Positions 37,497-56,500 of a stretch of DNA of 64,000 bases are shown here, piece after piece (within the stretch, counting starts at the first letter, position 1; each line of letters starts with the position of its first letter). Under the pieces are notes generated by a model. It did not search any database, was not told where the DNA came from, and saw only the letters and a program-made list of their open reading frames with translations. The stretch spans positions 640,001 through 704,000 of the forward strand of contig CAWJJC010000020.1 of NCBI GenBank assembly GCA_963843145.1, in the 5' to 3' direction. The DNA is from an uncultured delta proteobacterium (lineage in GTDB: Bacteria > Desulfobacterota > RBG-13-43-22). Made by a program: the position numbers and the translations under genes.

Positions 37497-40400
37497 ATGA
37501 ATGCATTTACCGAATCCGTTGTCGAAGATGCTGCCCTTGCCTGGCTGGAGAGTCTCGGCTATGTGATTAAACATGGCTTGGAGATCGCCCCCGGCGAACT
37601 TTTCGCCGAGCGTACCGACTACGGCCAAATAGTGATAGGGCAAAGACTACGAGACGCTCTCGCTCGAATTAACCCGCAGCTTCCTGCAGAGGCGGTCAGC
37701 GAAGCCTTCCGCAGGCTGACCCGGCCGGAAGGGCCGGCACTGGAGGCTCGAAACCGGGCCGTCCATCGGATGCTGGTGGATGGGGTAACGGTAGAATATC
37801 GGGATCGTGACGGCTCCATCCGAGGGGCACAGGCGGGGGTGATCGATTTTGACGATCCGGATAACAACGACTGGTTGGTAGTCAATCAGTTTACCGTCAG
37901 CGAGAATAAACATACCCGCCGCCCAGACTTGGTGGTCTTTATCAATGGGCTGCCTCTTGCAATGGTGGAGCTGAAAAACGCCGCTGACGAGAACGCCACC
38001 ATCTGGTCAGCCTTTGACCAGTTTCAAACCTACAAGGCTGAGCTGCCCACCCTTTTCGCCTTCAACGCGCTGCTGGTCGTCTCCGATGGTATCGAGGGTC
38101 GCATCGGCACCTTTACGGCGGGGCGGGAGTGGTTCAAACCCTGGCGGACAATCTCGGGTGAGGCCCTAGCCGATCCTCATCTGCCGGAGTTGCAGATAAT
38201 CATCGAGGGCTTGTTCGAGAAACGCCGTTTTCTCGATTTGATCAGAAATTTCATTGTGTTTGAGGACACGGGCGACGGGTTGTTGGTTAAGAAGATGGCG
38301 GGATACCACCAGTTTCACGCGGTGAATGTGGCTGTAGGGGAGACGCTCCGGGCCGCACGGCTTCAGGCAGTTGGAGGTTGGGGTGAGGAGCATGGCCGGT
38401 ACGAGGCCGGGTTAAAACACGGCGGCACTCGAGGCGATCGGCGGATCGGGGTGGTCTGGCACACCCAGGGGTCCGGCAAGAGTCTGACCATGGCCTTTTA
38501 TGCGGGGCGGGTGATCGGGAACCGGCGATGGAGAACCCGACGCTCGTCGTGCTTACCGACCGCAACGATCTCGACGACCAGCTTTTCGGCACTTTCTCAC
38601 GCTGCCAGGAACTCCTGCGCCAGCCGCCCGGTCCAGGCGGAGAACCGCGCGGACCTTCGAGAGCAAGCTGTCATGTCGACTCCGGCGGGGTGGTCTTCAC
38701 CACGATCCAGAAGTTCTTGCCCGAGGAAAAGGGCGACATGCATCCGGTGCTTTCCGACCGGCGCAACATCGTGGTCATCGCCGACGAGGCCCACCGCAGC
38801 CAATACGACTTCATCGACGGCTTTGCCCGGCACATGCGCGACGCCCTGCCCAACGCCTCGTTCATCGGCTTCACCGGCACGCCGATCGAGCTGACCGACA
38901 AGAACACCCGGGCCGTCTTCGGCGATTACATCAGCATTTACGACATCCAGCGGGCCGTCGAAGACAAGGCCACGGTGCCGATCTACTACGAGAGCCGGCT
39001 GGCCAAGCTGGAGCTGGACGAGTCCGAGAAGCCGACGCATCGACCCGAATTTGAGGAAGTGACCGAAGGCGAGGAGGTCGAGCGCAAGGAGAAGCTCAAG
39101 AGCAAATGGGCGCAGCTTGAAGCCATGGTCGGCGCCGAGAAACGCCTCGAGCTGGTCGCCCAGGACATCGTGGAGCACTTCGAGGAGCGGCTGTCGAGCG
39201 ATGGACGGCAAGGCGATGGTGGTCTGCATGAGCCGGCGCATCTGCGTGGACCTCTACAAGGAGATCGTCGAACTGCGCCCCGACTGGCACGACGAGGACG
39301 ACGACAAAGGCAAGCATGAAGGTCGTCATGACCGGCAACGCCTCGACGGCCCTCGAGTGGCAGCAGCACATCCGCAACAAGCCCCGGCGCGAGGCACTGG
39401 CCAAGCGGTTCAAGAATCCCGACGGACCCGTTCAAGATGGTGATCGTCCGCGACATGTGGCTGACCGGCTTCGACGCCCCGTGCCTGCACACGATGTACG
39501 TGGACAAGCCCATGCGGGGCCACGGGCTGATGCAGGCCATCGCCCGGGTGAACCGCGTCTTCCAGGACAAGCCCGGCGGGCTGGTGGTGGACTACCTCGG
39601 GCTCGCCGCACGAGCTGAAGGCCGCGCTGGCGACCTACACCGAAAGCGGCGGCACGGGGAAGACAGCGATCGACCAGGAAGAAGCGGTCGCAGTGATGCT
39701 GGAGAAACACGAAATCTGCTGCGGCCTGTTCCACGGCTTCGACTGGTCGCAAGTGGGTGACCGGCACGCCCGCCGAGCGACTGGCGCTGCTGCCGGCGGC
39801 CCAGGAGCACATCCTGGCCGCAGGAAGACGGCAAGGACCGGCTGCTTCGCGCCGTGCCGAACTGTCGGAGGCCTTTGCCCTGGCCGTTCCGCACGAGAAA
39901 GCGCTGCGAGATCCGCGACGACGTGGCCTTCTTCCAGGCGGTGAGGGCCGTGCCTGGCAAAGCGCGCGCCGGGCGAGGCGAAAGACCGAAGAGGAACTCG
40001 ATCACGCCGTCCGGCAGATCGTGTCGCGGGCGGTGGCCTCCGAGGGCGTCATCGACATCTTCGCCGCCGCCGGGCTTGAAGAAGCCCGACATCTCGATCC
40101 TCTCCGAGGAGTTCCTGGCCGAGGTCCGGGGCATGCCGCAGCGCAATCTGGCCGTGGAGCTGCTCCGCAAGCTGCTGTACGGACGAGATCGAGACCCGCA
40201 CGAAGCAAGAACTCGTTCAAGCGCAGTCTTTCGCCGAGATGCTGGAGCAGACGATCCGCCGCTACCAGAACCGGGCCATCGAGGCGGCCCAGGTCATCGA
40301 GGAGCTGATCGAGCTGGCCAGGGAGATGCGCGAGGCGAACGCCCGCGGCGAAGCCCTGGGCCTGACCGAAGACGAGTCGCCTTCTACGACGCCCTGGAAA

Positions 40401-46508: not shown

Positions 46509-47222
46509 ATGGTCCGGTTTAGTATGACGACCTTAAAAAGCAATGTTAGGGAAGCGCCGGCAACCGAATTTCTGAAAGAAGTTCCGGCCAGTCCGACATT
46601 CCTGAACCTTCCGGAAGCCAAGCGGGATCGAATTATCTTGGCGGCCACCCGGGAATTTTCAGAAAAGGGATACCAGGGAGCTTCCATCAACACCCTGGTG
46701 GACGACCTGGGAATCTCCAAGGGATCGATATTCCAATATTTTTCTAACAAGAAAGGCCTTTTTCTCTTTATCTTCCAGGCGGCGGTGGCCCAGGTCCGCA
46801 AAACCCTGGTAATGGTAAAAGAAGAAACCGAGGAACTGGAGGTCTTTGAACGAATCAGGAGTTCACTCCTGGCCGGAGTCGATTTCGTTCGTCGGCATCC
46901 CCATATCTATAGAATCTATTTGAAATTACTATTCGATCGGGACGCCCCTTTCCGCAATGAGCTGCTTCAGGCCGTTCGATTATTTTCCGCCGAATATCTG
47001 GGTTCTCTGGTGCGAAAGGGGATGGACCGGGGGGAGATCCGCCGGGATATCGCCCCGGAACAGGCGGTCTTTATCCTGGACGCGGTGCTGGACCGATACC
47101 TGCAAGCCTATATGGTTCCTTATCTGGACCACAGAGGCAATATCTACCGGGTGGATCAAAAAAAGGTGGAAGAGTGGGCGGTCGGACTGGTTACTATTTT
47201 GCGAAAAGGCTTGCAAGGATAG
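46509..47222 (+). CDS. TetR/AcrR family transcriptional regulator
   Basis: TFLNLPEAKR..I..AA..EF...GY..AS....V..LGISKGSIFQYF..K..LF. Confidence 0.92.
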   Translation: MVRFSMTTLKSNVREAPATEFLKEVPASPTFLNLPEAKRDRIILAATREFSEKGYQGASINTLVDDLGISKGSIFQYFSNKKGLFLFIFQAAVAQVRKTLVMVKEETEELEVFERIRSSLLAGVDFVRRHPHIYRIYLKLLFDRDAPFRNELLQAVRLFSAEYLGSLVRKGMDRGEIRRDIAPEQAVFILDAVLDRYLQAYMVPYLDHRGNIYRVDQKKVEEWAVGLVTILRKGLQG

Positions 47223-47259
47223 TTTTTTTTCTTTATAAAATGACCAGGTGGTCATTTTA
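47211..47259 (+). promoter_or_regulatory. Putative sigma70 promoter of mqnE overlapped by a perfect 11-bp inverted repeat (candidate TetR operator)
   Basis: TTGCAA-N17-TATAAA; TAAAATGACCA-GG-TGGTCATTTTA at 47236-47259; GGAGG RBS follows. Confidence 0.7.
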
Positions 47260-47275
47260 GTGGAGGTGTTTAAAA

Positions 47276-48364
47276 GTGCTTGAAGTCAGAGATGCGCGTC
47301 TAATGCCCATCCGGGAAAAGGTTTTATCGGGTGGGCGCTTGGGAAAGGAAGATGGTTTGGCCCTCTATCAAAGCCCTGACCTGCTGGGTGTGGGGGCTTT
47401 GGCCAACCTGGTCCGAGAGAACCGGAACGGCAACCGGGCCTATTACATCGTCAACCAGCATATTAACTATTCGAATATCTGTCAGAACCGCTGCCGTTTC
47501 TGCGCCTTCGGTCGGGACCCGGAGGATCCGCTGGCTTATCAAATGAGCCTGGAGGATATCGAGGCGAAAGTCCGGGAACGGCTGTCCGACCCGATCAGCG
47601 AAATTCACATCGTCGGGGGTATCCATCCCACCCTTCCCTTTGCCTACTACCTGGAAATGCTTCAACGGATTAAAAGAATCCGCCCGTCGGTTCACCTGCA
47701 AGCCTTCACGGCCGTGGAAATCGCCCATTTGGCTCACCTGGCCCAAAAATCCATTGAAGACACCTTGTCGGTCTTGATGGAAGCCGGGTTGGGATCTTTG
47801 CCGGGGGGCGGGGCGGAGGTCTTCAGCTCCCGTATCCGGGAAAACCTCTGCGCCAAAAAACTCCCTTCCCAGGATTGGATTTCCGTTTGCCAGACGGCCC
47901 ACCGTCTCGGACTCCATACCAATGCCACCCTGCTCTACGGCCATCTGGAGACCCTGGAAGAGCGGGTGGACCACTTGCTGGCCCTGCGGAAGGCCCAGGA
48001 TGAGACCGGAGGTTTTCTGACCTTTATCCCGCTCGCTTTCCATCCCAAGAATACCGAGTTGGCGGGAATGGCCGGCACGACCGGCGTGGATGATCTGAAA
48101 AATATCGCCGTGGCTCGCCTGATGCTGGACAACTTTCCCCACATCAAGTCCTTCTGGATCATGATCGGTCCCAAACTGGCCCAGATTTCCCTGTCCTTTG
48201 GAGCCGACGATATAGATGGAACGGTCATTGAAGAACGGATTACCCATATGGCCGGGGCGGAAACCGCCCAAGCCATGACCCGGGAGGAAATTCTTCACCT
48301 GATCCGGGAAGCCGGACGTGAACCGGTGGAGCGGGATACTTTATATAATACTCTAGTCTATTAA
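47276..48364 (+). CDS. mqnE: Aminofutalosine synthase (radical SAM)
   Basis: NYSNICQNRCRFCAF, EIHIVGG, KSFWIM, DIDGTVIEERITHMAGA. Confidence 0.88.
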   Translation: MLEVRDARLMPIREKVLSGGRLGKEDGLALYQSPDLLGVGALANLVRENRNGNRAYYIVNQHINYSNICQNRCRFCAFGRDPEDPLAYQMSLEDIEAKVRERLSDPISEIHIVGGIHPTLPFAYYLEMLQRIKRIRPSVHLQAFTAVEIAHLAHLAQKSIEDTLSVLMEAGLGSLPGGGAEVFSSRIRENLCAKKLPSQDWISVCQTAHRLGLHTNATLLYGHLETLEERVDHLLALRKAQDETGGFLTFIPLAFHPKNTELAGMAGTTGVDDLKNIAVARLMLDNFPHIKSFWIMIGPKLAQISLSFGADDIDGTVIEERITHMAGAETAQAMTREEILHLIREAGREPVERDTLYNTLVY

Positions 48365-48386
48365 ACCTGGTTGCCGCTCAAACCCG

Positions 48387-49407
48387 ATGCGCCTCAATTT
48401 CCAACAAGCCCTGGACTGGTACCAATCGGATCTCCTGACACTCGGGCAAGCCGCCCAGGAGGTTCGCTGGAAGCTCCACCCCGAACCGGTGGTCACTTAT
48501 GTGGTGGACCGGAACATTAATTACACCAATGTCTGCCTTTCCGGCTGCCGTTTTTGCGCTTTTTATCGGCCGGCGGATTCCCCGGAAGCCTATGTGCTGG
48601 ACCGGGAGGTCTTGGGCAAAAAAATTGAAGAAACATTGGCCCTGGGAGGCACCCAGATACTACTTCAGGGCGGGATGCACCCTGCTCTGCCCTTTTCATT
48701 TTATGAGGACTTGCTTCAATGGATCAAGGCCCGTTACCCGATCCACATCCACGGGTTTTCGCCCCCCGAAATCAATCACCTGTCCCGTATAGCGGGGCTG
48801 CCCCTGGAAACGGTTCTAATCCGGCTCAGGGATTCCGGGCTTGGCTCCATTCCCGGGCGGTGGGGCTGAAATACTGGTGGACCGGGTCAGGGAACGGGTT
48901 TCTCCCCGAAAAGGGACGAGCGCCGAGTGGCTTCAGGTCATGGAAACGGCCCACCGTCTCGGGTTGCGAACCACCGCCACCATGATGTTCGGCCATCTGG
49001 AAACGGTCGCAGACCGGATTGAGCACCTCCTGGTCGTTCGAGAACTGCAGGATCGTACCGGCGGCTTCACCGCTTTCATCCCCTGGACCTTCCAGCCGGG
49101 GAATACCGATCTACGGCGGATTCCGGCCGGGGGGACGGAGTACTTGCGTATGCTGGCCTTGTCCCGGTTGGTCCTCGACAACATTCCCAACATCCAGGCT
49201 TCCTGGGTTACCCAGGGGCCCAAGGTCGGACAAATCGCCCTTCTGTTCGGAGCCAACGACCTGGGCAGCACGATGATCGAAGAAAATGTGGTGGCCGCCG
49301 CCGGGGTGGCTTACCGCTTATCTATTGAAGAGCTGGCCCGCCTGATCACGGCCGCCTGTTTTATCCCCCAACAGCGGGACACCTTTTACCAAAAGGTGGC
49401 GGCATGA
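48387..49407 (+). CDS. mqnC: Cyclic dehypoxanthinyl futalosine synthase (radical SAM); +1 frameshift at ~48852-48857
   Basis: DRNINYTNVC...CRFCAFYR, LLQGGMHP, QASWVTQG, GANDLGSTMIEENVV; removing one base restores IPGGGAEIL. Confidence 0.88.
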
Positions 49408-50270
49408 CCCCCCGTGTGGCGGTTATCGCCAGGGTTGGAGCTCATCGGTCTTTTCTGGAACAGGGCGCCCGAGAGTTAAATGTTCAGCCCTTGAACACTC
49501 CATTCGGATTAAGCGTTCCGATCCATTTTTTGGAGTCGGAGGGCATCCCCTTTGTGGTCTTATCCCGCCACGGGGAGGACCGATATGCTACCGCGGCCCC
49601 CTTCGTAAACGACCTGGCCAACATCTGGGCACTGAAAGAAGCCGGCATCGAAAAAATCCTGTCCTGGTCGGCCCCCGGTTCTCTGAATCCGAATTTGGCG
49701 CCTGGTTCCCTGGTGGTGGTGGATGATTTGCTGGATGAAACCCGGTCGGGCCCGCGGTCTTTTTTCGAGGGAAAGGGTATCGGGGTAATCCGGCAGGAGG
49801 CTGTGTTTTGTCCGGAGATCAGAGTCTTGATGGTGGAAAAGCTGGCGAACGGACGGTTTCCCCTTCATTCGAAAGGAGTGTATGTCTCCGTGGAAGGGCC
49901 ACGACTGGAAACCAAGGCGGAGATCCGCAAGTATCGTCTGCTAGGAGGAGACCTGATCGGCATGAACCTGGCGCCGGAGGCCTTCCTGGCCAAGGAGCTG
50001 GAGATGTGTTACGGGGCCTTGTGCTATCCCGTCAATTTCGCCGAAGGGGTCAAGGTGCGCCCTTACGTGCGGGGGGTCCTGTTTGAAGGACTGGCCTATC
50101 CCGAGGAAATGGCGCTGGTCAAAGAAGTGGAAGAGGCCTTCCCGGATCTGATCCTGCCTTTATTGGCCCCCTTGACGGAAACCCCCCGCGCCTGCCCCTG
50201 TCCCGTCGCTATGGAGCGCTATAAAATTCGGGGGGACATCGGGGAGGACTTTCACACGTGGATCAAATAA
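49404..50270 (+). CDS. MTAP/MTIP-family purine nucleoside phosphorylase-fold protein
   Basis: SRHG, ANIWALK..G, SAPGSL, EGPRLETKAE, GMN..PE..LA.EL, VNFAEG; ATGA overlap with mqnC. Confidence 0.85.
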   Translation: MTPRVAVIARVGAHRSFLEQGARELNVQPLNTPFGLSVPIHFLESEGIPFVVLSRHGEDRYATAAPFVNDLANIWALKEAGIEKILSWSAPGSLNPNLAPGSLVVVDDLLDETRSGPRSFFEGKGIGVIRQEAVFCPEIRVLMVEKLANGRFPLHSKGVYVSVEGPRLETKAEIRKYRLLGGDLIGMNLAPEAFLAKELEMCYGALCYPVNFAEGVKVRPYVRGVLFEGLAYPEEMALVKEVEEAFPDLILPLLAPLTETPRACPCPVAMERYKIRGDIGEDFHTWIK

Positions 50271-51460
50271 CACTCTACCAGGCCCGCTGGATCGTCCCGG
50301 TAAGCCGCCCCCCCATTGAGCAAGGGATCATCGCGGTCCGAAACGGCGAGATAACCGCGGTAGGGAGGGGAAAGGAAATTTCCACGGCCTTTCCCGGGGA
50401 ACGGCGGGACTTGGGCCAGGGAGCGATCCTTCCCGGCTTGATCAATGCGCACACCCATGTGGAACTGTCCCAGTTTAAAGGTCTCATTCCGGAAGGTTTG
50501 GGGTTTGTTTCCTGGGTGAGGAACCTGTTGTCTCTCAAAGAAAAAACCAAGGCGGAGAATCCGGACGAGGCCGTGGGACCGGCCTGGGATGAAATCAGCC
50601 GTACCGGCACCTGTGCCGCCGGGGACTGGATCAGTCTGGGGCGCTTGATCCCGCGAGGGTCTTTATCGAAAATATTCCGTCGGTTATTCTTTGAAGTGAT
50701 CGGGTTTGACTCCTCGGCGTTGACTTTGCCGGAGGGCCTCGACGAGAGACCGGCGCCGGACCTATTCGGAAGTTTAACCCTGGGGGCCCACGCCCCCCAT
50801 AGCACCTCGGCCGCTTTGCTCCAGGCCGCCAAAACCTGGACCCGGCGAAGGGGTCTGCCGCTCGCCGTTCATGTGGCGGAATCGCCGGAGGAAACTGAGT
50901 TTCTGTTCTCCGGCAGCGGCCTCTGGAAGGATTTTTTGATCGAGCGGGGTAAATGGGTCGAGGGTTGGAGAGCCCCGGGGACCACTCCGGTAAAATACCT
51001 GGACCACCTGGGTCTGCTGGATGAAAAGACGCTGGCGGTTCACCTGACCCAGGCGGATGAAGCGGATCTTTCCCTGCTCCGAAAAAGAAACGTCCGGATA
51101 GCGGTTTGTCCCCGCAGCAACCAATTCATTGTCGGCGCCCTCCCCAAAATTCCTTTTATGCTGCGGATGGGCCTGAACCCGGCCTTGAGCACCGACAGCC
51201 TGGCGAGCAACCGGGACCTCAGTCTCTGGGGAGAAATGGAAACCGTGCAGCAGGCCTTCCCGGAGATCGAACCCGAGGAAATTATCCGGATGGCAACGAT
51301 CAACGGGGCTTCGGCCCTGGATCTTTCCGAAGAGCTGGGAGACTTGACGCCGGGGAAAAAGGCCCGCATGTTCTTTCTTCCTTTGCCTGAGGTCAATAAG
51401 GCGAATTTATTGTCCGCCATCATTCAATCCCGGGGCCACGGATTGGAATGGGTGTCGTAA
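50258..51460 (+). CDS. Amidohydrolase, probable aminodeoxyfutalosine deaminase
   Basis: PGLINAHTHVELS, HAPHS, HVAESPEE, CPRSN, TDSLASN; operon context. Confidence 0.78.
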   Translation: MDQITLYQARWIVPVSRPPIEQGIIAVRNGEITAVGRGKEISTAFPGERRDLGQGAILPGLINAHTHVELSQFKGLIPEGLGFVSWVRNLLSLKEKTKAENPDEAVGPAWDEISRTGTCAAGDWISLGRLIPRGSLSKIFRRLFFEVIGFDSSALTLPEGLDERPAPDLFGSLTLGAHAPHSTSAALLQAAKTWTRRRGLPLAVHVAESPEETEFLFSGSGLWKDFLIERGKWVEGWRAPGTTPVKYLDHLGLLDEKTLAVHLTQADEADLSLLRKRNVRIAVCPRSNQFIVGALPKIPFMLRMGLNPALSTDSLASNRDLSLWGEMETVQQAFPEIEPEEIIRMATINGASALDLSEELGDLTPGKKARMFFLPLPEVNKANLLSAIIQSRGHGLEWVS

Positions 51461-51493
51461 CCAAACCTATCATTTTAAAAATGGGAAGTAACC

Positions 51494-52942
51494 ATGGCCT
51501 ATGCTGATTTACAGTCGTTTATATCCAGGCTGGAAAAGGAGGGGGAACTGGTTCGCATCAGGGAACCGCTGGATCCCTATTTGGAGATCTGCGAGGTAAC
51601 CGACCGGGTCTGCAAGGCGGGCGGTCCCGCACTCCTTTTTGAGGCGGTGAAGGGGAACACCGTTCCGGTGCTGACCAACGCCTTCGGTTCATTAAAACGG
51701 ATGTGCCGGGCTCTGGAAGTGGAGCGCCTGGATCAGATCGGAGAGGAAATTCACCAGTTGTTGGCCCTCAAACCTCCCCAAGGTTTCATGGACAAACTCC
51801 GGCTGCTCCCCCGGCTCAAACGGCTTCGGGACCTGCTGCCGCGCACGGTGGACCAGGGGCCCTGCCAGGAAGTCGTTTTTCAGGAAAACCCGGACCTGTC
51901 CGCCTACCCGGTCCTGACCACCTGGCCCCTGGATGGCGGTCCATTCATCACCCTTCCCCTGGTCATCACTCGGGATCCGTTGACCGGGAAACGCAACGTG
52001 GGCATGTACCGCCTCCAGGTATTTGACGCCAGGACCCTGGGGGTCCACTGGCAACTCCATAAAGTGGGGGCCCAGCATTTTCGCGCCGCCGAAGCCTCGG
52101 GGAAGGACCTGCCCGTGGCCGTGGCTCTGGGACCAGACCCGGCCCTGACCTACGCGGCCACCGCCCCGCTGCCGGAAGAGCTGGATGAATTCATGTTCGC
52201 CGGATTCCTGCGCCGGGAGCCCGTCAAACTGGTCAAATGTCGAACCATCGATCTGGAGGTGCCGGCCAACGCCCAGATCGTCATTGAAGGGATCGTCCCG
52301 GCCGGGAAGCGGCGACGAGAAGGGCCTTTCGGGGATCACACGGGCTATTATTCCCTGGCGGATGACTATCCGCTGATGGAGGTAACCTGCATCACTCAGC
52401 GAAAGAACCCTGTTTACCCGGCTACGGTAGTAGGGGTGCCGCCCATGGAAGACGCCTTCCTGGGCAAAGCCACGGAGCGGATTTTCCTGCCCCTGCTTCG
52501 TCAGACCCTGCCGGAAATCCGGGATATGCATCTGCCGGCCGCCGGCGCTTTCCATAACTTCGCCCTGGTGTCCATAAACAAGCGCTATCCCGGGCACGCC
52601 AAAAAGGTCATGATGGCCCTCTGGGGGCTGGGACAGATGATGTTTTCCAAATTCATCGTGGTCTTTGACGGGGAGGTGGACGTCCAGGACCTGAACCAGG
52701 TCCTCTGGCAATGGGGGGCCAATGTGGACCCCCGGCGGGACTCGGTACTGGTGGAAGGCCCGGTGGATGCGCTGGATCACGCCGCACCGCTGCCGGCTCT
52801 GGGCAGCAAAATCGGGTTTGATGCCACAACCAAATGGCCGGAGGAAGGATTCGGCCGGCCCTGGCCGGATAAGATCCGCATGGATCCTCAGGTGAGCAAG
52901 AGGATCAATCAAATCTGGTCCAGGCTGGGGCTGCCGCGATGA
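51494..52942 (+). CDS. mqnL: UbiD-family menaquinone biosynthesis decarboxylase
   Basis: NVGMYRLQ, EGPFGDHTGYY, VGVPPMED, DALDHA; operon context. Confidence 0.85.
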   Translation: MAYADLQSFISRLEKEGELVRIREPLDPYLEICEVTDRVCKAGGPALLFEAVKGNTVPVLTNAFGSLKRMCRALEVERLDQIGEEIHQLLALKPPQGFMDKLRLLPRLKRLRDLLPRTVDQGPCQEVVFQENPDLSAYPVLTTWPLDGGPFITLPLVITRDPLTGKRNVGMYRLQVFDARTLGVHWQLHKVGAQHFRAAEASGKDLPVAVALGPDPALTYAATAPLPEELDEFMFAGFLRREPVKLVKCRTIDLEVPANAQIVIEGIVPAGKRRREGPFGDHTGYYSLADDYPLMEVTCITQRKNPVYPATVVGVPPMEDAFLGKATERIFLPLLRQTLPEIRDMHLPAAGAFHNFALVSINKRYPGHAKKVMMALWGLGQMMFSKFIVVFDGEVDVQDLNQVLWQWGANVDPRRDSVLVEGPVDALDHAAPLPALGSKIGFDATTKWPEEGFGRPWPDKIRMDPQVSKRINQIWSRLGLPR

Positions 52943-53799
52943 AGCAGCTCGCGACGATTTTTGAACTAGTCAAATTTGAACATACGATTTTTGCCCTGCC
53001 CTTTGCCTATCTGGGGGCCTGGCTGGCGGCTTCCGGTCCGCCCACCCTGAAGGTGGGGCTGCTGATCCTGGGGGCCATGGTCGGCGCCCGGACGGCGGCC
53101 ATGGCCTTCAACCGGATCGCCGATGCCAAAATCGACGCACTCAACCCGCGAACGGCCGGCCGGCCGATTCCCTCTGGACGCCTATCCTCGGCCGCAGCCT
53201 GGCTTGTCTGTCTAGCGGCGGCAGCGGCTTTTTTTCTGGCCAGTTGGGCCCTAAACCCCCTGGCTTTGGCCCTTTCGCCCCTGGCCCTGGGGGTGATCCT
53301 GGCCTATTCCTACACGAAACGGTTTACGGCGACCTCTCACCTGATACTGGGACTGGCCTTGGCGATAGCTCCCATCGGGGGTTGGGTGGCGGTGCGAAAT
53401 GAACTGGGGCTGCTCCCCTTGGTCTTGGGGGCCGGGGTCTTGTTTTGGGTGGCCGGCTTCGATGTCCTCTATGCCTGCCAGGACGAATCCTTTGATCGCC
53501 GGCACGGGCTGTATTCCCTTCCGGCCCGCAGGGGAGCCGCGGCGGCCTTTCGGGTGGCCGGTTTTTTTCATTTTCTGGCTTTTCTGTTTTTTGCCCTCAC
53601 GGGCCGACTGGCCAACCTGGGGGGATTCTTTTTTATCGGTTTAACCCTGGTCTTTATCTTTCTCTTTCTGGAACACCTGATTATTTCCCCCCGAGATCTT
53701 TCCAAGCTGCAGACTGCTTTTTTCACCTTGAACGGGGCGGTCAGTCTGGTTCTTTTTTTGGCCACCTGGCTGGAATTTTGGAAAGGACGTTCGTACTAA
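52939..53799 (+). CDS. mqnP: UbiA-family prenyltransferase of the futalosine pathway
   Basis: KFEHTIFALPFA, AMAFNRIADAKIDALNPRT..RP, YSYTKRF, FDVLYACQD. Confidence 0.85.
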   Translation: MKQLATIFELVKFEHTIFALPFAYLGAWLAASGPPTLKVGLLILGAMVGARTAAMAFNRIADAKIDALNPRTAGRPIPSGRLSSAAAWLVCLAAAAAFFLASWALNPLALALSPLALGVILAYSYTKRFTATSHLILGLALAIAPIGGWVAVRNELGLLPLVLGAGVLFWVAGFDVLYACQDESFDRRHGLYSLPARRGAAAAFRVAGFFHFLAFLFFALTGRLANLGGFFFIGLTLVFIFLFLEHLIISPRDLSKLQTAFFTLNGAVSLVLFLATWLEFWKGRSY

Positions 53800-53856
53800 A
53801 ACCTCTTGCCCCAGGGGGTACCTGCGGAGCATGAAAAAAATAAAGGAGGAGGTCCG

Positions 53857-54864
53857 ATGAATAAAAAAATTTTCCTCTTGTTAGGGGCCGCTTTCTGGCT
53901 GGTGAGTTTCTGTCCCCAGCCGGCCTCGGCCCTGACCACGGTCAAAGTGGGGATGCTCAAAGTTTCCAGCAGCGCTCCTCTTTTTGTGGGACTGGAAAAA
54001 GGATATTTTCAGGAGGAGGGGATCAAGATCGAGCCGATCTGGTTCAAGTCGGCCCAGCCCATTGCCATGGCTCTGGCCAGCGGGGATATTGATGTCGGGG
54101 CCACCGGTCTGACCGCCGGGCTATACAACGCCGCCGCCCAAGGAACCAAGCTGGCGGTCGTGGCGGATAAGGGTCGGGAATGGCCCGGCTATAAATTGAC
54201 CGCCCTGGTGGTGGATTCGAACCAAGCCAAGGCCGGAATCAAAGATCTCGCTCAACTCAAGGGTAAGCGGATCGGCATCACCCAGATAGGCTCCACCTTT
54301 CACTATATGCTGGGCAACCTGCTGGAGAAAAGGGGCCTGTCTCTCAAGGACGTCAAAGTCGTTCCCCTGAACAGCCTCAATACGATGCGGGACGCCGTTT
54401 TCAGCCACCAGATCGAGGCCGCCTTCATGGTCCAGCCCCATGTCACCCCGGCGGAAAAAGCGGACTTGGCCGAAGTGCTGCTCTGGGTGGGTGATCACCT
54501 GCCTTACCAGTTGGGAGGGATCTTTTATGGAGAAAAACTGATCAAGAACCACTCCCTGGCCGTCTCTTTTCTTAAGGGCTATATTCGCAGTTGCCGGTAT
54601 TATCATGAAAACGGATTGAGCAAGAAAGCGGGGGTGCCGACTCCGGAACTCCTGACCCTGATCGCTCGGTATACGGAAGAGAAACCCGAGGACGTGGCCG
54701 CCGGGCTCCCCTATATTGATCCCAACGGAGAGCTGCTCAGTGGTGACATTCAAAAACAGATTGACTGGTACGCGGCCCATGGCCTGGTGATCCGAAGGAT
54801 GCCTTCCTCCGAAATCATGGACCTTTCGCTTTACCGTGAGGCTCTGAAACAGCTTAAAAAATAA
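53857..54864 (+). CDS. ABC transporter substrate-binding protein (SsuA/NMT1-like)
   Basis: Sec signal peptide, APLFVGLEKGYFQEEG, LKGKRIG.TQ.GST. Confidence 0.88.
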   Translation: MNKKIFLLLGAAFWLVSFCPQPASALTTVKVGMLKVSSSAPLFVGLEKGYFQEEGIKIEPIWFKSAQPIAMALASGDIDVGATGLTAGLYNAAAQGTKLAVVADKGREWPGYKLTALVVDSNQAKAGIKDLAQLKGKRIGITQIGSTFHYMLGNLLEKRGLSLKDVKVVPLNSLNTMRDAVFSHQIEAAFMVQPHVTPAEKADLAEVLLWVGDHLPYQLGGIFYGEKLIKNHSLAVSFLKGYIRSCRYYHENGLSKKAGVPTPELLTLIARYTEEKPEDVAAGLPYIDPNGELLSGDIQKQIDWYAAHGLVIRRMPSSEIMDLSLYREALKQLKK

Positions 54865-55640
54865 TGCCGGTCTTGATCGAACAGCTTACCAAAACCTATC
54901 TGGACCGGAAGGGGCGGACCTTGACGGCGCTGGAAGGAGTGGATTTGACTGTCCGCGAGAGCGAATTCCTGACCCTCCTGGGGCCCAGCGGCAGCGGAAA
55001 AACAACACTGCTCAATATCATCGCCGGGTTGCTATCCCCCACTTCCGGCCGGGTGGTCTTCGAGGGAGCGAGTCTCAATGGTCGGCCGCTGACGGCGGTT
55101 GTTTTTCAGGAAGGCGCCCTTTTCCCCTGGCGGACCGTGGCAAAAAACATTCAGTTCGGACTGGAGGAAAAGGGCCTGGGAAAAACACAGCGCCGATCCC
55201 TGGCCGCTGAATTTATCCAATTGACGGGCCTGGCCGGCTTTGAGGATCGGTATCCCCACCAGCTCTCCGGAGGGTTAAAACAGCGGGTGGCCTTGGCTCG
55301 GGCCCTGGCCGTGAATCCCTATCTCCTGTTGATGGATGAACCGTTATCGGCCCTGGATGCCCAGACCCGGCTGCTGATGCAGCGGGAAATTTCGCAAATT
55401 TGGGAAAAGGCCAGAAACAGTGTCTTATACGTCACCCACAATATTCGGGAGGCCGTTTTCCTCAGCGATCGGGTGGCCGTCCTCTCGCGGAGACCGGGAC
55501 GGATCATAGACCTGGTCTCCATCGACCTGCCCCGTCCCCGCAGCGAGGATCTAACCCGTGAGCAGCCCTTCCAGCGATACGTGGATCGCTTATGGGCCCG
55601 GATCAAGGACCAAGCCCGCGAGGCCGTTGAGGAGGGATGA
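54864..55640 (+). CDS. ABC transporter ATP-binding protein (TauB/SsuB-like)
   Basis: [28 protein letters not shown]. Confidence 0.93.
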
Positions 55641-56500
55641 TGGCAGAGAAAAAGACCGCCTCTTTCTTAATCAGCCATCGGACGCCCCAGCCGTCCTATG
55701 CGGCGGCCCGAACCGGGACGGTTCGGGACAAGACCGCTTTTATCGATGACCGGCCCCAGCCTTATTTGAGCTGGATCGCTTTTGCGGTCTTGCTGGGCCT
55801 CTGGGAAGCGGCCGGCCGTCTCTCCCTGGTCTCCCCCCTCTTTTTGCCGGCTCCCAGCGATATTCTCCTGGAAGCCTGGGGACTGCTGATCTCCGGCCAG
55901 CTTTTCCGGCACCTGGGGATCAGCCTGTTCCGAATTGGAAGTGGTTTTATGCTAGCCGCCGGACTGGGCGTTCTGTCCGGGATCCTGCTGGGTTCTTCGC
56001 GCCTGGCAGAGGCGCTGGGGAATCCGATTCTGGCCGCCCTCTTTCCCATCCCTAAAATCGCCATCCTCCCCTTGCTGATTCTCTGGTTGGGAATCGGGGA
56101 AGCCCCGAAGATTGCGGTAATCGGTCTGGGGGTCTTTTTCCCCCTGGCCATCAACGTCTATACGGGCGTTAAGAACGTGGATCCCCTGTTGATCCGGGTG
56201 GCCCTGAGCCTCGGTTCCAGTCGTCTGGGCCTGATCAGAAAGGTTGTCTGGCCCGCCATTCTGCCCATGATCTTTGCCGGTCTGAAGCTGGGCCTGGGGA
56301 TCTCGCTCCTTTTGGTGGTGGCCGCCGAGATGATCGCCGCCGACGCCGGGATCGGGTATCTCATCCTCACCGCCGCCGACTTGATGCAGACCAAGAAACT
56401 GATGGTGGGGATCGGGATGCTGTCCGGGCTCGGAATTTTGTTTAACTGGCTGCTGGGGAAAATGGAACGGTGGCTGATTCCCTGGAAAGAGGGTCTCTAA
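55637..56500 (+). CDS. ABC transporter permease (TauC/SsuC-like)
   Basis: FLPAP, PIPKIAILPL...WLGIGE..K, VVAAEM. Confidence 0.92.
   Translation: MMAEKKTASFLISHRTPQPSYAAARTGTVRDKTAFIDDRPQPYLSWIAFAVLLGLWEAAGRLSLVSPLFLPAPSDILLEAWGLLISGQLFRHLGISLFRIGSGFMLAAGLGVLSGILLGSSRLAEALGNPILAALFPIPKIAILPLLILWLGIGEAPKIAVIGLGVFFPLAINVYTGVKNVDPLLIRVALSLGSSRLGLIRKVVWPAILPMIFAGLKLGLGISLLLVVAAEMIAADAGIGYLILTAADLMQTKKLMVGIGMLSGLGILFNWLLGKMERWLIPWKEGL

Follow-up and report, generated by a model that had tools for sequence, protein, structure and literature searches.

Enzymes related to the nucleoside-cleaving step of the futalosine pathway

Many anaerobes and some pathogens synthesize menaquinone by the futalosine pathway, which is a drug target as humans do not have it. 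The accepted early steps of this pathway are catalyzed by MqnA, MqnE, a deaminase, MqnB (or MTAN), MqnC and MqnD. We analyzed a 64,000-nucleotide stretch of DNA from an uncultured delta proteobacterium (Desulfobacterota, RBG-13-43-22; assembly GCA_963843145.1, contig CAWJJC010000020.1, positions 640,001 to 704,000; hereafter "the window"), in which an mqn operon encodes, directly downstream of mqnC, a 288-amino-acid (aa) protein with the fold of MTAP. Judging from its sequence and genomic surroundings, this protein, which we designate X, probably (with a probability of roughly 0.7) functions as a dedicated futalosine-cleaving enzyme of the menaquinone route, in the place of MqnB.

MqnB (TIGR03664; Thermus/Streptomyces type) takes hypoxanthine off futalosine ahead of MqnC, at the position proposed here for X, and both proteins are members of PF01048 in the broad sense of a superfamily. 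However, MqnB represents the MTAN-like nucleosidase branch, whereas X folds like the trimeric MTAPs, and no match of X to the MqnB model was listed in the family scan. Across genomes the two are mutually exclusive, and the genomes with X apparently lack MqnD as well. MqnB is also bypassed in Campylobacter and Helicobacter, where MTAN, which belongs to the superfamily of X and cleaves nucleosides more generally, works on aminofutalosine. Unlike the route proposed for X, MTAN uses the adenine nucleoside directly and no deaminase is needed.

The human and archaeal MTAPs (TIGR01694; PDB 1cb0, 5tc5) are closest to X in sequence as well as in structure, with Arg60-His61 and Ala94 (human numbering) conserved. 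X deviates from them in having Glu instead of Ser178 and Asn instead of Asp220, in the changes at Thr18 and Thr197 in its clade, and in its genomic context. The MTAP-family fold is also shared by MTIP of Pseudomonas aeruginosa (PDB 3ozb, NF006599), and 3ozb is among the Foldseek matches of X. According to the consulted part of a review (PMC6302742), MTIP acts on a 5'-modified 6-oxopurine nucleoside after a deaminase. Nevertheless, X differs from MTIP in its score with the corresponding model (131.3 bits, under the cut-off of 223), in Trp88, in the N[FY]AEG motif, in a C-terminal extension of ~25 residues (C.C..RY..DW..W) and in its location in an mqn operon.

A protein of this description has been discussed before. 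Ravcheev and Thiele (2016; PMC4746308) named "MqnZ" a PF01048 protein which is clustered with mqnC, mqnE or mqnEAC, is found only in the absence of mqnD, and was given the MqnD step; in the consulted part of their article the assignment is phyletic only, and its main text has no mention of "mqnb" or "deaminase". X fits this picture, as it is a PF01048 protein encoded next to mqnC and mqnE in genomes apparently without MqnD. Co-localization and mqnD absence are thus common to both, the two being likened by description only; the MqnZ members are from Firmicutes. Within the literature covered by our search, no experimental follow-up of MqnZ was found, and one other biological paper cites the term once. 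An earlier note made from the letters of this DNA had suggested a new variant of the futalosine pathway; the X locus is indeed a real and uncharacterized variant, whose novelty is reduced by this partial anticipation in print.

The mqn operon of the window

Seven genes (ORF map) are arranged head to tail at positions 46509-53799, with three overlapping junctions (4, 13 and 4 nucleotides, nt) and two short gaps (22 and 33 nt):

46509-47222, + strand, TetR-family regulator, first gene of the conserved operon (Pfam TetR_N, 49.1 bits)
47276-48364, + strand, mqnE, aminofutalosine synthase, a radical S-adenosylmethionine (SAM) enzyme (TIGR03700, 502.3 bits; cut-off 434.55)
48387-49407, + strand, mqnC, cyclic dehypoxanthinyl-futalosine synthase (TIGR03699, 206.0 and 287.4 bits for the two halves; cut-off 428.1)
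49404-50270, + strand, X, 288-aa MTAP-fold protein, proposed futalosine-cleaving enzyme; overlaps mqnC by 4 nt
50258-51460, + strand, amidohydrolase, probable aminofutalosine deaminase; overlaps X by 13 nt
51494-52942, + strand, mqnL, UbiD-type decarboxylase of the menaquinone pathway (TIGR03701, 649 bits; cut-off 495.9)
52939-53799, + strand, mqnP-like UbiA-family prenyltransferase (TIGR01475, 295.8 bits; cut-off 180.8); overlaps mqnL by 4 nt

The coordinates and family scores confirm the gene order mqnE-mqnC-X-amidohydrolase-mqnL-mqnP with its close or overlapping junctions as it had been read from the sequence, and likewise the absence of mqnB and MTAN genes from the window. The mqnC gene is split over two frames (see below), and the summed score of its halves exceeds the TIGR03699 cut-off. 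The MqnP exception models gave 250-279 bits with the mqnP-like protein, under their own cut-offs.

The amidohydrolase is probably an aminofutalosine deaminase, as suggested by its sequence relatives. It scores 137 bits with the model for the "aminofutalosine deaminase family" (NF006269), under the cut-off of 320. Its closest solved relative is DR_0824 (PDB 2imr; 100.4 bits), with which the metal-binding and catalytic motifs HxH, HVAE, VH and TDS align, and it also matches 7lkj (52.9 bits), deposited as "Aminofutalosine deaminase". Goble et al. reportedly found in 2013 that DR_0824 deaminates aminofutalosine.

X represents a distinct family of MTAP-fold proteins

X is a member of PF01048 (103.9 bits; gathering score 25.1) and scores 167.5 bits with the MTAP model TIGR01694, under the cut-off of 274.85; it stays under the cut-offs of all the curated NCBIfam models. 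Its AlphaFold2 model (mean predicted local distance difference test score, pLDDT, 86.3) has human MTAP as the best Foldseek match (E 1.6e-22, template modelling score 0.71), and the top matches are all MTAPs; the best sequence match to an MTAP has 114 bits. In a FastTree phylogeny with few outgroups, X forms a separate clade (support 99) on a long branch from the canonical MTAPs of the same order and from PNPs. It is also distinct from the housekeeping MTAP, as a canonical MTAP (34-36% identity) is present in addition in two of the X genomes (G003 and G017). The X family thus constitutes a branch of its own among the trimeric MTAP/PNP proteins, with a wide distribution.

The residues of X were mapped on human MTAP with a phmmer and a MAFFT alignment, and family frequencies were counted over 80 loci, i.e., the best 80 of at least 543 relatives (598 pattern-matched stretches of species genomes). 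Phe177-Ser178 of human MTAP correspond to Leu168-Glu169 of X (motif GPRLET), Asp220 to Asn211 (motif VNFAEG) and Asp222 to Ala213. Glu169 is invariant among the 80 family members, of which at least 78 have Asn211. We take these two to occupy the positions of PNP Glu201 and Asn243, the 6-oxopurine signature. Further hallmarks of the family, besides GPRLET and N[FY]AEG, are Trp88 and the C-terminal extension (R.C.C..M.RY..G.I..DW..W), which MTAP does not have. The residues which the earlier note had picked out, namely the Glu/Asn pair, the ARVG loop, MN in place of MT and the retained Arg-His, are all found on the MTAP alignment.

X co-occurs with MqnE and excludes MqnB

In the order, only five of 21 genomes encode an X orthologue scoring at least 365 bits (G000, which contains the window, G003, G009, G017 and G020). 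These are exactly the MqnE-positive genomes of the 21, and X abuts mqnC in each of them; neither MqnB nor PF02621, the family of MqnA and MqnD, was detected above cut-off in any of the 21. The same pattern was observed in 301 evenly sampled genomes of the phylum, in which X was called at E<=1e-40 and at least 45% identity and MqnB-like genes at E<=1e-15. MqnE is present in 152 of them. All 24 genomes with X, from seven families, are MqnE-positive and none has an MqnB-like gene, whereas such a gene occurs in 104 of the other 128 MqnE-positive genomes (Fisher test for X versus MqnB, p = 5.9e-15, a value which ignores relatedness and is not a probability); 24 MqnE-positive genomes have neither X nor MqnB. 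MTAN exceeds the cut-off in four of the 301 genomes, none of them X-bearing. The anti-correlation with mqnB, by which the replacement of MqnB by an MTAP-fold enzyme was to be checked, is therefore seen in this sample. Furthermore, five genomes with X from outside the phylum (Nitrospinota, Nitrospirota, Armatimonadota, Planctomycetota, Acidobacteriota) all possess MqnE above cut-off and exactly one PF02621 gene, and none has MqnB above cut-off.

The assembly with the window is 97.9% complete, and no MqnB or MTAN gene was found in it above the family cut-offs, so that a canonical enzyme encoded elsewhere in the genome, part of what the earlier note had named as a refutation, is not seen. The best match to TIGR03664 has 23.7 bits (cut-off 124.7) and lies at another locus than X; the best one to TIGR01704 has 26.8 bits (cut-off 73.8). 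Overall, 24 of the 152 MqnE-positive genomes of the phylum depart from the accepted scheme in having X and neither MqnB nor MTAN. Such organisms are scored as pathway-incomplete, with the gene annotated as "MTAP family purine nucleoside phosphorylase", and assigning X would correct their metabolic reconstructions. A cultured host is available in Desulfobacca acetoxidans.

Apparent absence of MqnD from genomes with X

The number of PF02621 genes differs between the two groups: 20 of the 24 X genomes have one and four have none, versus two in 99 of the 104 MqnB genomes. The single copy was typed in one X genome (G029), where it is MqnA (146 bits with the chorismate dehydratase of Streptomyces coelicolor, 33.9 bits with the MqnD TTHA1568). 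Judging from this one typed case, MqnD seems to be missing from the X genomes in addition to MqnB. In the genome with the window, no PF02621 gene was found at all, a search at E up to 10 giving one 11.3-bit match only; a hidden MqnA was looked for with tblastn using five MqnA proteins from X genomes, and nothing better than E 0.09 was obtained. This co-absence of MqnD and, in this genome, of MqnA points beyond what the earlier note had observed. Without MqnD, the product of MqnC must be processed in a different way or by an unrecognized enzyme, and this chemistry may be new.

The missing MqnD is also what would be expected if X were an enzyme of the MqnZ kind, converting cyclic dehypoxanthine futalosine to 1,4-dihydroxy-6-naphthoate instead of cleaving a nucleoside. 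Ravcheev and Thiele proposed this function, in the part of their article consulted, from co-localization and anti-correlation with mqnD (PMC4746308), and the clusters studied here contain no other conserved unknown gene. However, X conserves the purine-binding Glu/Asn as well as ribose and phosphate-site residues as in nucleoside phosphorylases, its commonest downstream neighbor (54 of 72 loci) is a deaminase expected to make a 6-oxopurine substrate, and a nucleoside-cleaving enzyme is required anyway in genomes that lack MqnB and MTAN. On account of the purine-binding residues and the deaminase neighbor, a nucleoside-cleaving role of X is likelier, and an MqnD-like one is very improbable.

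Gene context, fusions and more distant relatives

The usual operon in Desulfobaccales-like metagenome-assembled genomes is tetR-mqnE-mqnC-X-amidohydrolase-mqnA-mqnL-mqnP, with a TetR gene ahead of mqnE in the majority of the 80 loci. In other phyla the operon reads mqnL-ubiX-mqnP-mqnE-mqnA-mqnC-X, and the order mqnE-mqnA-mqnC-X is found in L103, L107, L114, L120 and L126. In the family to which the window belongs, mqnA is gone from the operon: its five mqn-bearing genomes have no PF02621 gene, and in other families the mqnA of X genomes is still found between the genes for the amidohydrolase and MqnL.

In 49 of 67 assessable loci, X immediately follows mqnC or forms a fusion with it, and the amidohydrolase gene comes directly after X in 54 of 72. 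Eight loci contain MqnC-X fusion open reading frames (ORFs) of 663-701 aa, which consist of a full MqnC, a linker of 20-55 residues and a full X. The exceptions to this context are mostly in Nitrospinota and Nitrospirota, where the pathway genes are dispersed.

An alternative function raised in the earlier note is the salvage of by-products of radical SAM enzymes. In this case, X and the amidohydrolase would clear 5'-deoxyadenosine or 5'-methylthioadenosine (MTA) via 5'-deoxyinosine or 5'-methylthioinosine (MTI) with subsequent phosphorolysis, in the manner of MTIP. MqnC does release 5'-deoxyadenosine, the Glu/Asn signature is common to many ~260-aa MTIP-like proteins, and in some loci (e.g., L102, L109, L115, L119) X and amidohydrolase genes are paired without mqn neighbors. 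Yet radical SAM enzymes are universal, whereas X is confined to MqnE-positive genomes (24 of 24) and thus tracks MqnE rather than radical SAM enzymes generally; salvage would not predict that X never occurs beside MqnB in a genome, and the MqnC-X fusions speak against it as well. Moreover, relatives have a canonical MTAP besides X, and the genome with the window has a separate pair of a PunA-type PNP (NF006054, 351.8 bits) and a 447-aa MtaD-like amidohydrolase (G000:C27:203273-207013), which probably serves general 5'-deoxyadenosine/MTA or purine salvage:

L001, 1450-2406, - strand, PNP of the pair
L001, 21-1364, - strand, deaminase of the pair

Salvage is therefore disfavored, and of the functions considered for X we regard it as the least probable one.

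The C.C motif and the YAE(G/T)G core of X recur in two groups that are more distantly related to it. The first one, "X3", is a third MTAP-like type (273-283 aa, ~29% identical to X) with the motifs GGSS, [RK]MHGW, FES, GQS and VN[YF]AEG, in which the Arg60 position is occupied by Met. It is encoded directly after mqnC in three loci:

L221, 1339-2190, - strand, X3 (genome G255)
L223, 1387-2220, + strand, X3 (genome G082)
L224, 1336-2157, - strand, X3 (genome G042)

These three genomes have MqnE and one PF02621 gene, and neither MqnB nor X. An MTAP-like gene behind mqnC is therefore recurrent in genomes without MqnB and MqnD. The second group, "Xdiv" (L136-L193, e.g., L147:6001-6864), has kept the C-terminal C.C..DW..W and NYAETGS and has lost both Arg-His and Met-Thr. 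For this group, 80 metagenome loci were returned, and the 51 of at least 3.5 kb were annotated. Among the closer Xdiv (L136-L191), no mqn neighbors were found in 34 loci of at least 3.5 kb; an amidohydrolase gene lies downstream in four Xdiv loci, and the conserved neighbors are dnaN, dciA and ribBA.

Proposed route

MqnE would produce aminofutalosine, which would be deaminated by the adjacent amidohydrolase to the hypoxanthine nucleoside futalosine. X would bind futalosine through its PNP-like Glu169 and Asn211 and cleave the N-ribosidic bond, and the ribosyl product would be handed to MqnC. In this way, X would replace MqnB or the MTAN of the Campylobacter-type route. If so, a new class of substrates would be added to those of the MTAP fold. 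That X acts at the MqnB step and is fed by the neighboring deaminase had already been suggested for this locus, and the suggestion is supported by the co-occurrence with MqnE, the exclusion of MqnB, the adjacency of the genes and the fusions. Indeed, given this strict co-occurrence and exclusion, their repetition in other phyla and the MqnC-X fusions, X is most likely a futalosine-cleaving enzyme.

Several observations weigh against this assignment. Proteins other than X have the Glu/Asn pair too. It is present in 95 of 131 representatives of clusters, many of which are ~260 aa long and MTIP-like; the pair therefore indicates a 6-oxopurine (inosine-type) nucleoside and not futalosine specifically. 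X loci of Nitrospinota and Nitrospirota have no mqn neighbor within 6 kb. Two of the five genomes from outside the phylum encode an unclassified nucleosidase resembling MTAN/HpnG, which reaches 81-85 bits with the MqnB model, stays below all cut-offs and could stand in for MqnB there. The genome counts overstate independence, as the sampled genomes are related to one another. In the genome with the window, the pathway looks incomplete, since MqnA and MqnD are missing from it and mqnC is frameshifted in the assembly. Finally, the literature covered by our search contained no paper on an MTAP-type futalosine enzyme and, on phosphorolysis of futalosine, nothing but a speculative comment in one review (PMC6302742).

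Phosphorolysis or hydrolysis

The phosphate ligands of human MTAP, Thr18, Arg60, His61, Thr93, Ala94 and Thr197, correspond to Val11, Arg55, His56, Ser89, Ala90 and Asn188 of X; four of the six are thus retained or conservatively replaced and two are changed. The first change lies in the GG(T/S)G loop, which in X is Ala9-Arg10-Val11-Gly12, and the second in Met196-Thr197, which has become Met187-Asn188; Arg60-His61 is retained as Arg55-His56. In the family, Arg-His is kept in 79 of the 80 members (SRHG in 78, FRHG in one). At the position of Thr197, 76 members have Thr, Asn being limited to four, all from the clade of the window. The Thr18 loop has the form A/G-R-V/T-G in ~52 members and GGS(G/Q) in ~24, and the position of Thr93 is taken by Val (30), Ser (30), Cys (17), Thr (2) or Ala (1). 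The anion site therefore appears to be mostly conserved in the X family and partly eroded in the window's own clade.

The earlier note had interpreted the altered positions as a phosphorylase scaffold converted into a hydrolase. X would then activate water as the nucleophile and release free dehypoxanthine futalosine, exactly like MqnB. Such a conversion is consistent with the two changed ligands (Thr18 to Val11, Thr197 to Asn188) in the window's clade, with Val or Cys often found at the Thr18 and Thr93 positions in the larger ARVG clade, with the complete loss of Arg-His and Met-Thr in distant relatives having the same C-terminal motif, and with Met at the Arg60 position of the mqnC-linked X3. 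Canonical MqnC, moreover, takes an unphosphorylated sugar in the characterized systems. However, the near-invariance of Arg55-His56 (79/80) and of the Thr197 equivalent (76/80) and the canonical loop in about 24 of the 80 do not support the claim as written, and the extra Arg at the Gly17 position could make up for the lost Thr18. We know of no hydrolase in the trimeric MTAP/PNP branch. The relatives with a degenerate phosphate site have no mqn neighbors in loci of at least 3.5 kb (the context of Xdiv as such neither supports nor refutes hydrolysis in X), and the absence of MqnD hints at a downstream intermediate unlike the canonical one. Taken together, a futalosine hydrolase of the MqnB kind is a rather doubtful description of X.

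Provided that X cleaves futalosine, its residue pattern makes phosphorolysis to dehypoxanthine-futalosine 1-phosphate the somewhat favored reaction, and we lean to phosphate for the family as the Arg-His/Thr site is under selection. On the same premise, hydrolysis would be the less expected outcome but a serious contender, for which the clade of the window (Thr18 to Val, Thr197 to Asn) would be the best candidate. Phosphorolysis could be extended to a phospho-variant of the whole pathway, in which X would phosphorolyze futalosine, MqnC would cyclize the phosphorylated sugar and a three-carbon remnant would leave without MqnD. As one option, an MtnA-type 1-phosphate isomerase could act, followed by retro-aldol cleavage to dihydroxyacetone phosphate (DHAP), comparable to the DHAP shunt for 5-deoxyribose. 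This route would explain the joint loss of MqnB and MqnD where X or X3 appears. An MtnA-like isomerase (PF01008) is present in 293 of the 301 genomes and therefore cannot discriminate such a phosphorylated intermediate; we consider the phospho-variant speculative and, on the whole, unlikely.

The mqnC frameshift and the state of the pathway in this organism

The two parts of mqnC (48387-48869 and 48841-49407) are separated by one extra C at ~48852, where the window has CCC and the genome of the same genus (G003) has CC; mqnC is intact in the latter (339 aa). The contig of a ~93%-identical relative (run X2) has no extra C and an in-frame mqnC, and a near-identical DNA contig (run X1) has CCC and ends 5 nt after it. 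As a single base in a homopolymer is concerned, which is absent from the contig of the relative, the frameshift is likely a sequencing error. Between the genome with the window and G003, dN/dS is 0.126 for mqnC (with the extra base removed), 0.136 for mqnE, 0.112 for X and 0.23 for the amidohydrolase gene; all six genes compared have values of 0.07-0.23, i.e., they are under purifying selection.

The pathway in this organism is either finished by unrecognized enzymes or being lost. In the latter case, the cluster would be a decaying remnant and X would have no current role here, which is compatible with the function proposed for the family. Such decay would account for the retention of the cluster in only five of the 21 genomes of the order, for the missing MqnA and MqnD and for the frameshift. 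The classical Men pathway was considered as another source of menaquinone and is missing too, with no MenD above cut-off (best match 68.9 bits; cut-off 244.2). However, the low dN/dS values of all six genes and the probable origin of the frameshift in sequencing argue against decay, as do near-identical contigs from an RNA library which cover parts of mqnE and X, a weak indication as DNA can contaminate such libraries. We regard a relic as improbable.

Other genes of the genome and of the window

Besides X and the PunA-type PNP, the genome contains two PF01048 genes, both of which were considered as a substitute for MqnB and rejected. The AMN-like protein (G000:C28:159220-160176) is a housekeeping one, as it is present in 18 of the 21 genomes of the order irrespective of mqn genes. 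The only MTAN-like sequence (G000:C28:34722-35317; L004: 1441-1749, 1896-2597) consists of a short domain which a stop interrupts and which runs on into a long, unrelated C-terminal part. Next to it comes a large ATPase-like ORF, and the locus looks like a degraded defence-type fusion and not like MqnB. A MenA-like UbiA prenyltransferase is encoded at G000:C5:23917-24741 (99.1 bits, just below the TIGR00751 cut-off of 102.15).

Downstream of mqnP, at 53806-56500, there are genes for an NMT1/SsuA-like binding protein with a signal peptide, an ABC ATPase and a permease. They are probably unrelated to the mqn operon, as the arrangement is kept in G003 of the same genus and not in G009 and G017. 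The G+C content of the window is 0.44-0.49 in the first 4 kb, 0.636 at 38001-40000 and 0.50-0.60 elsewhere.

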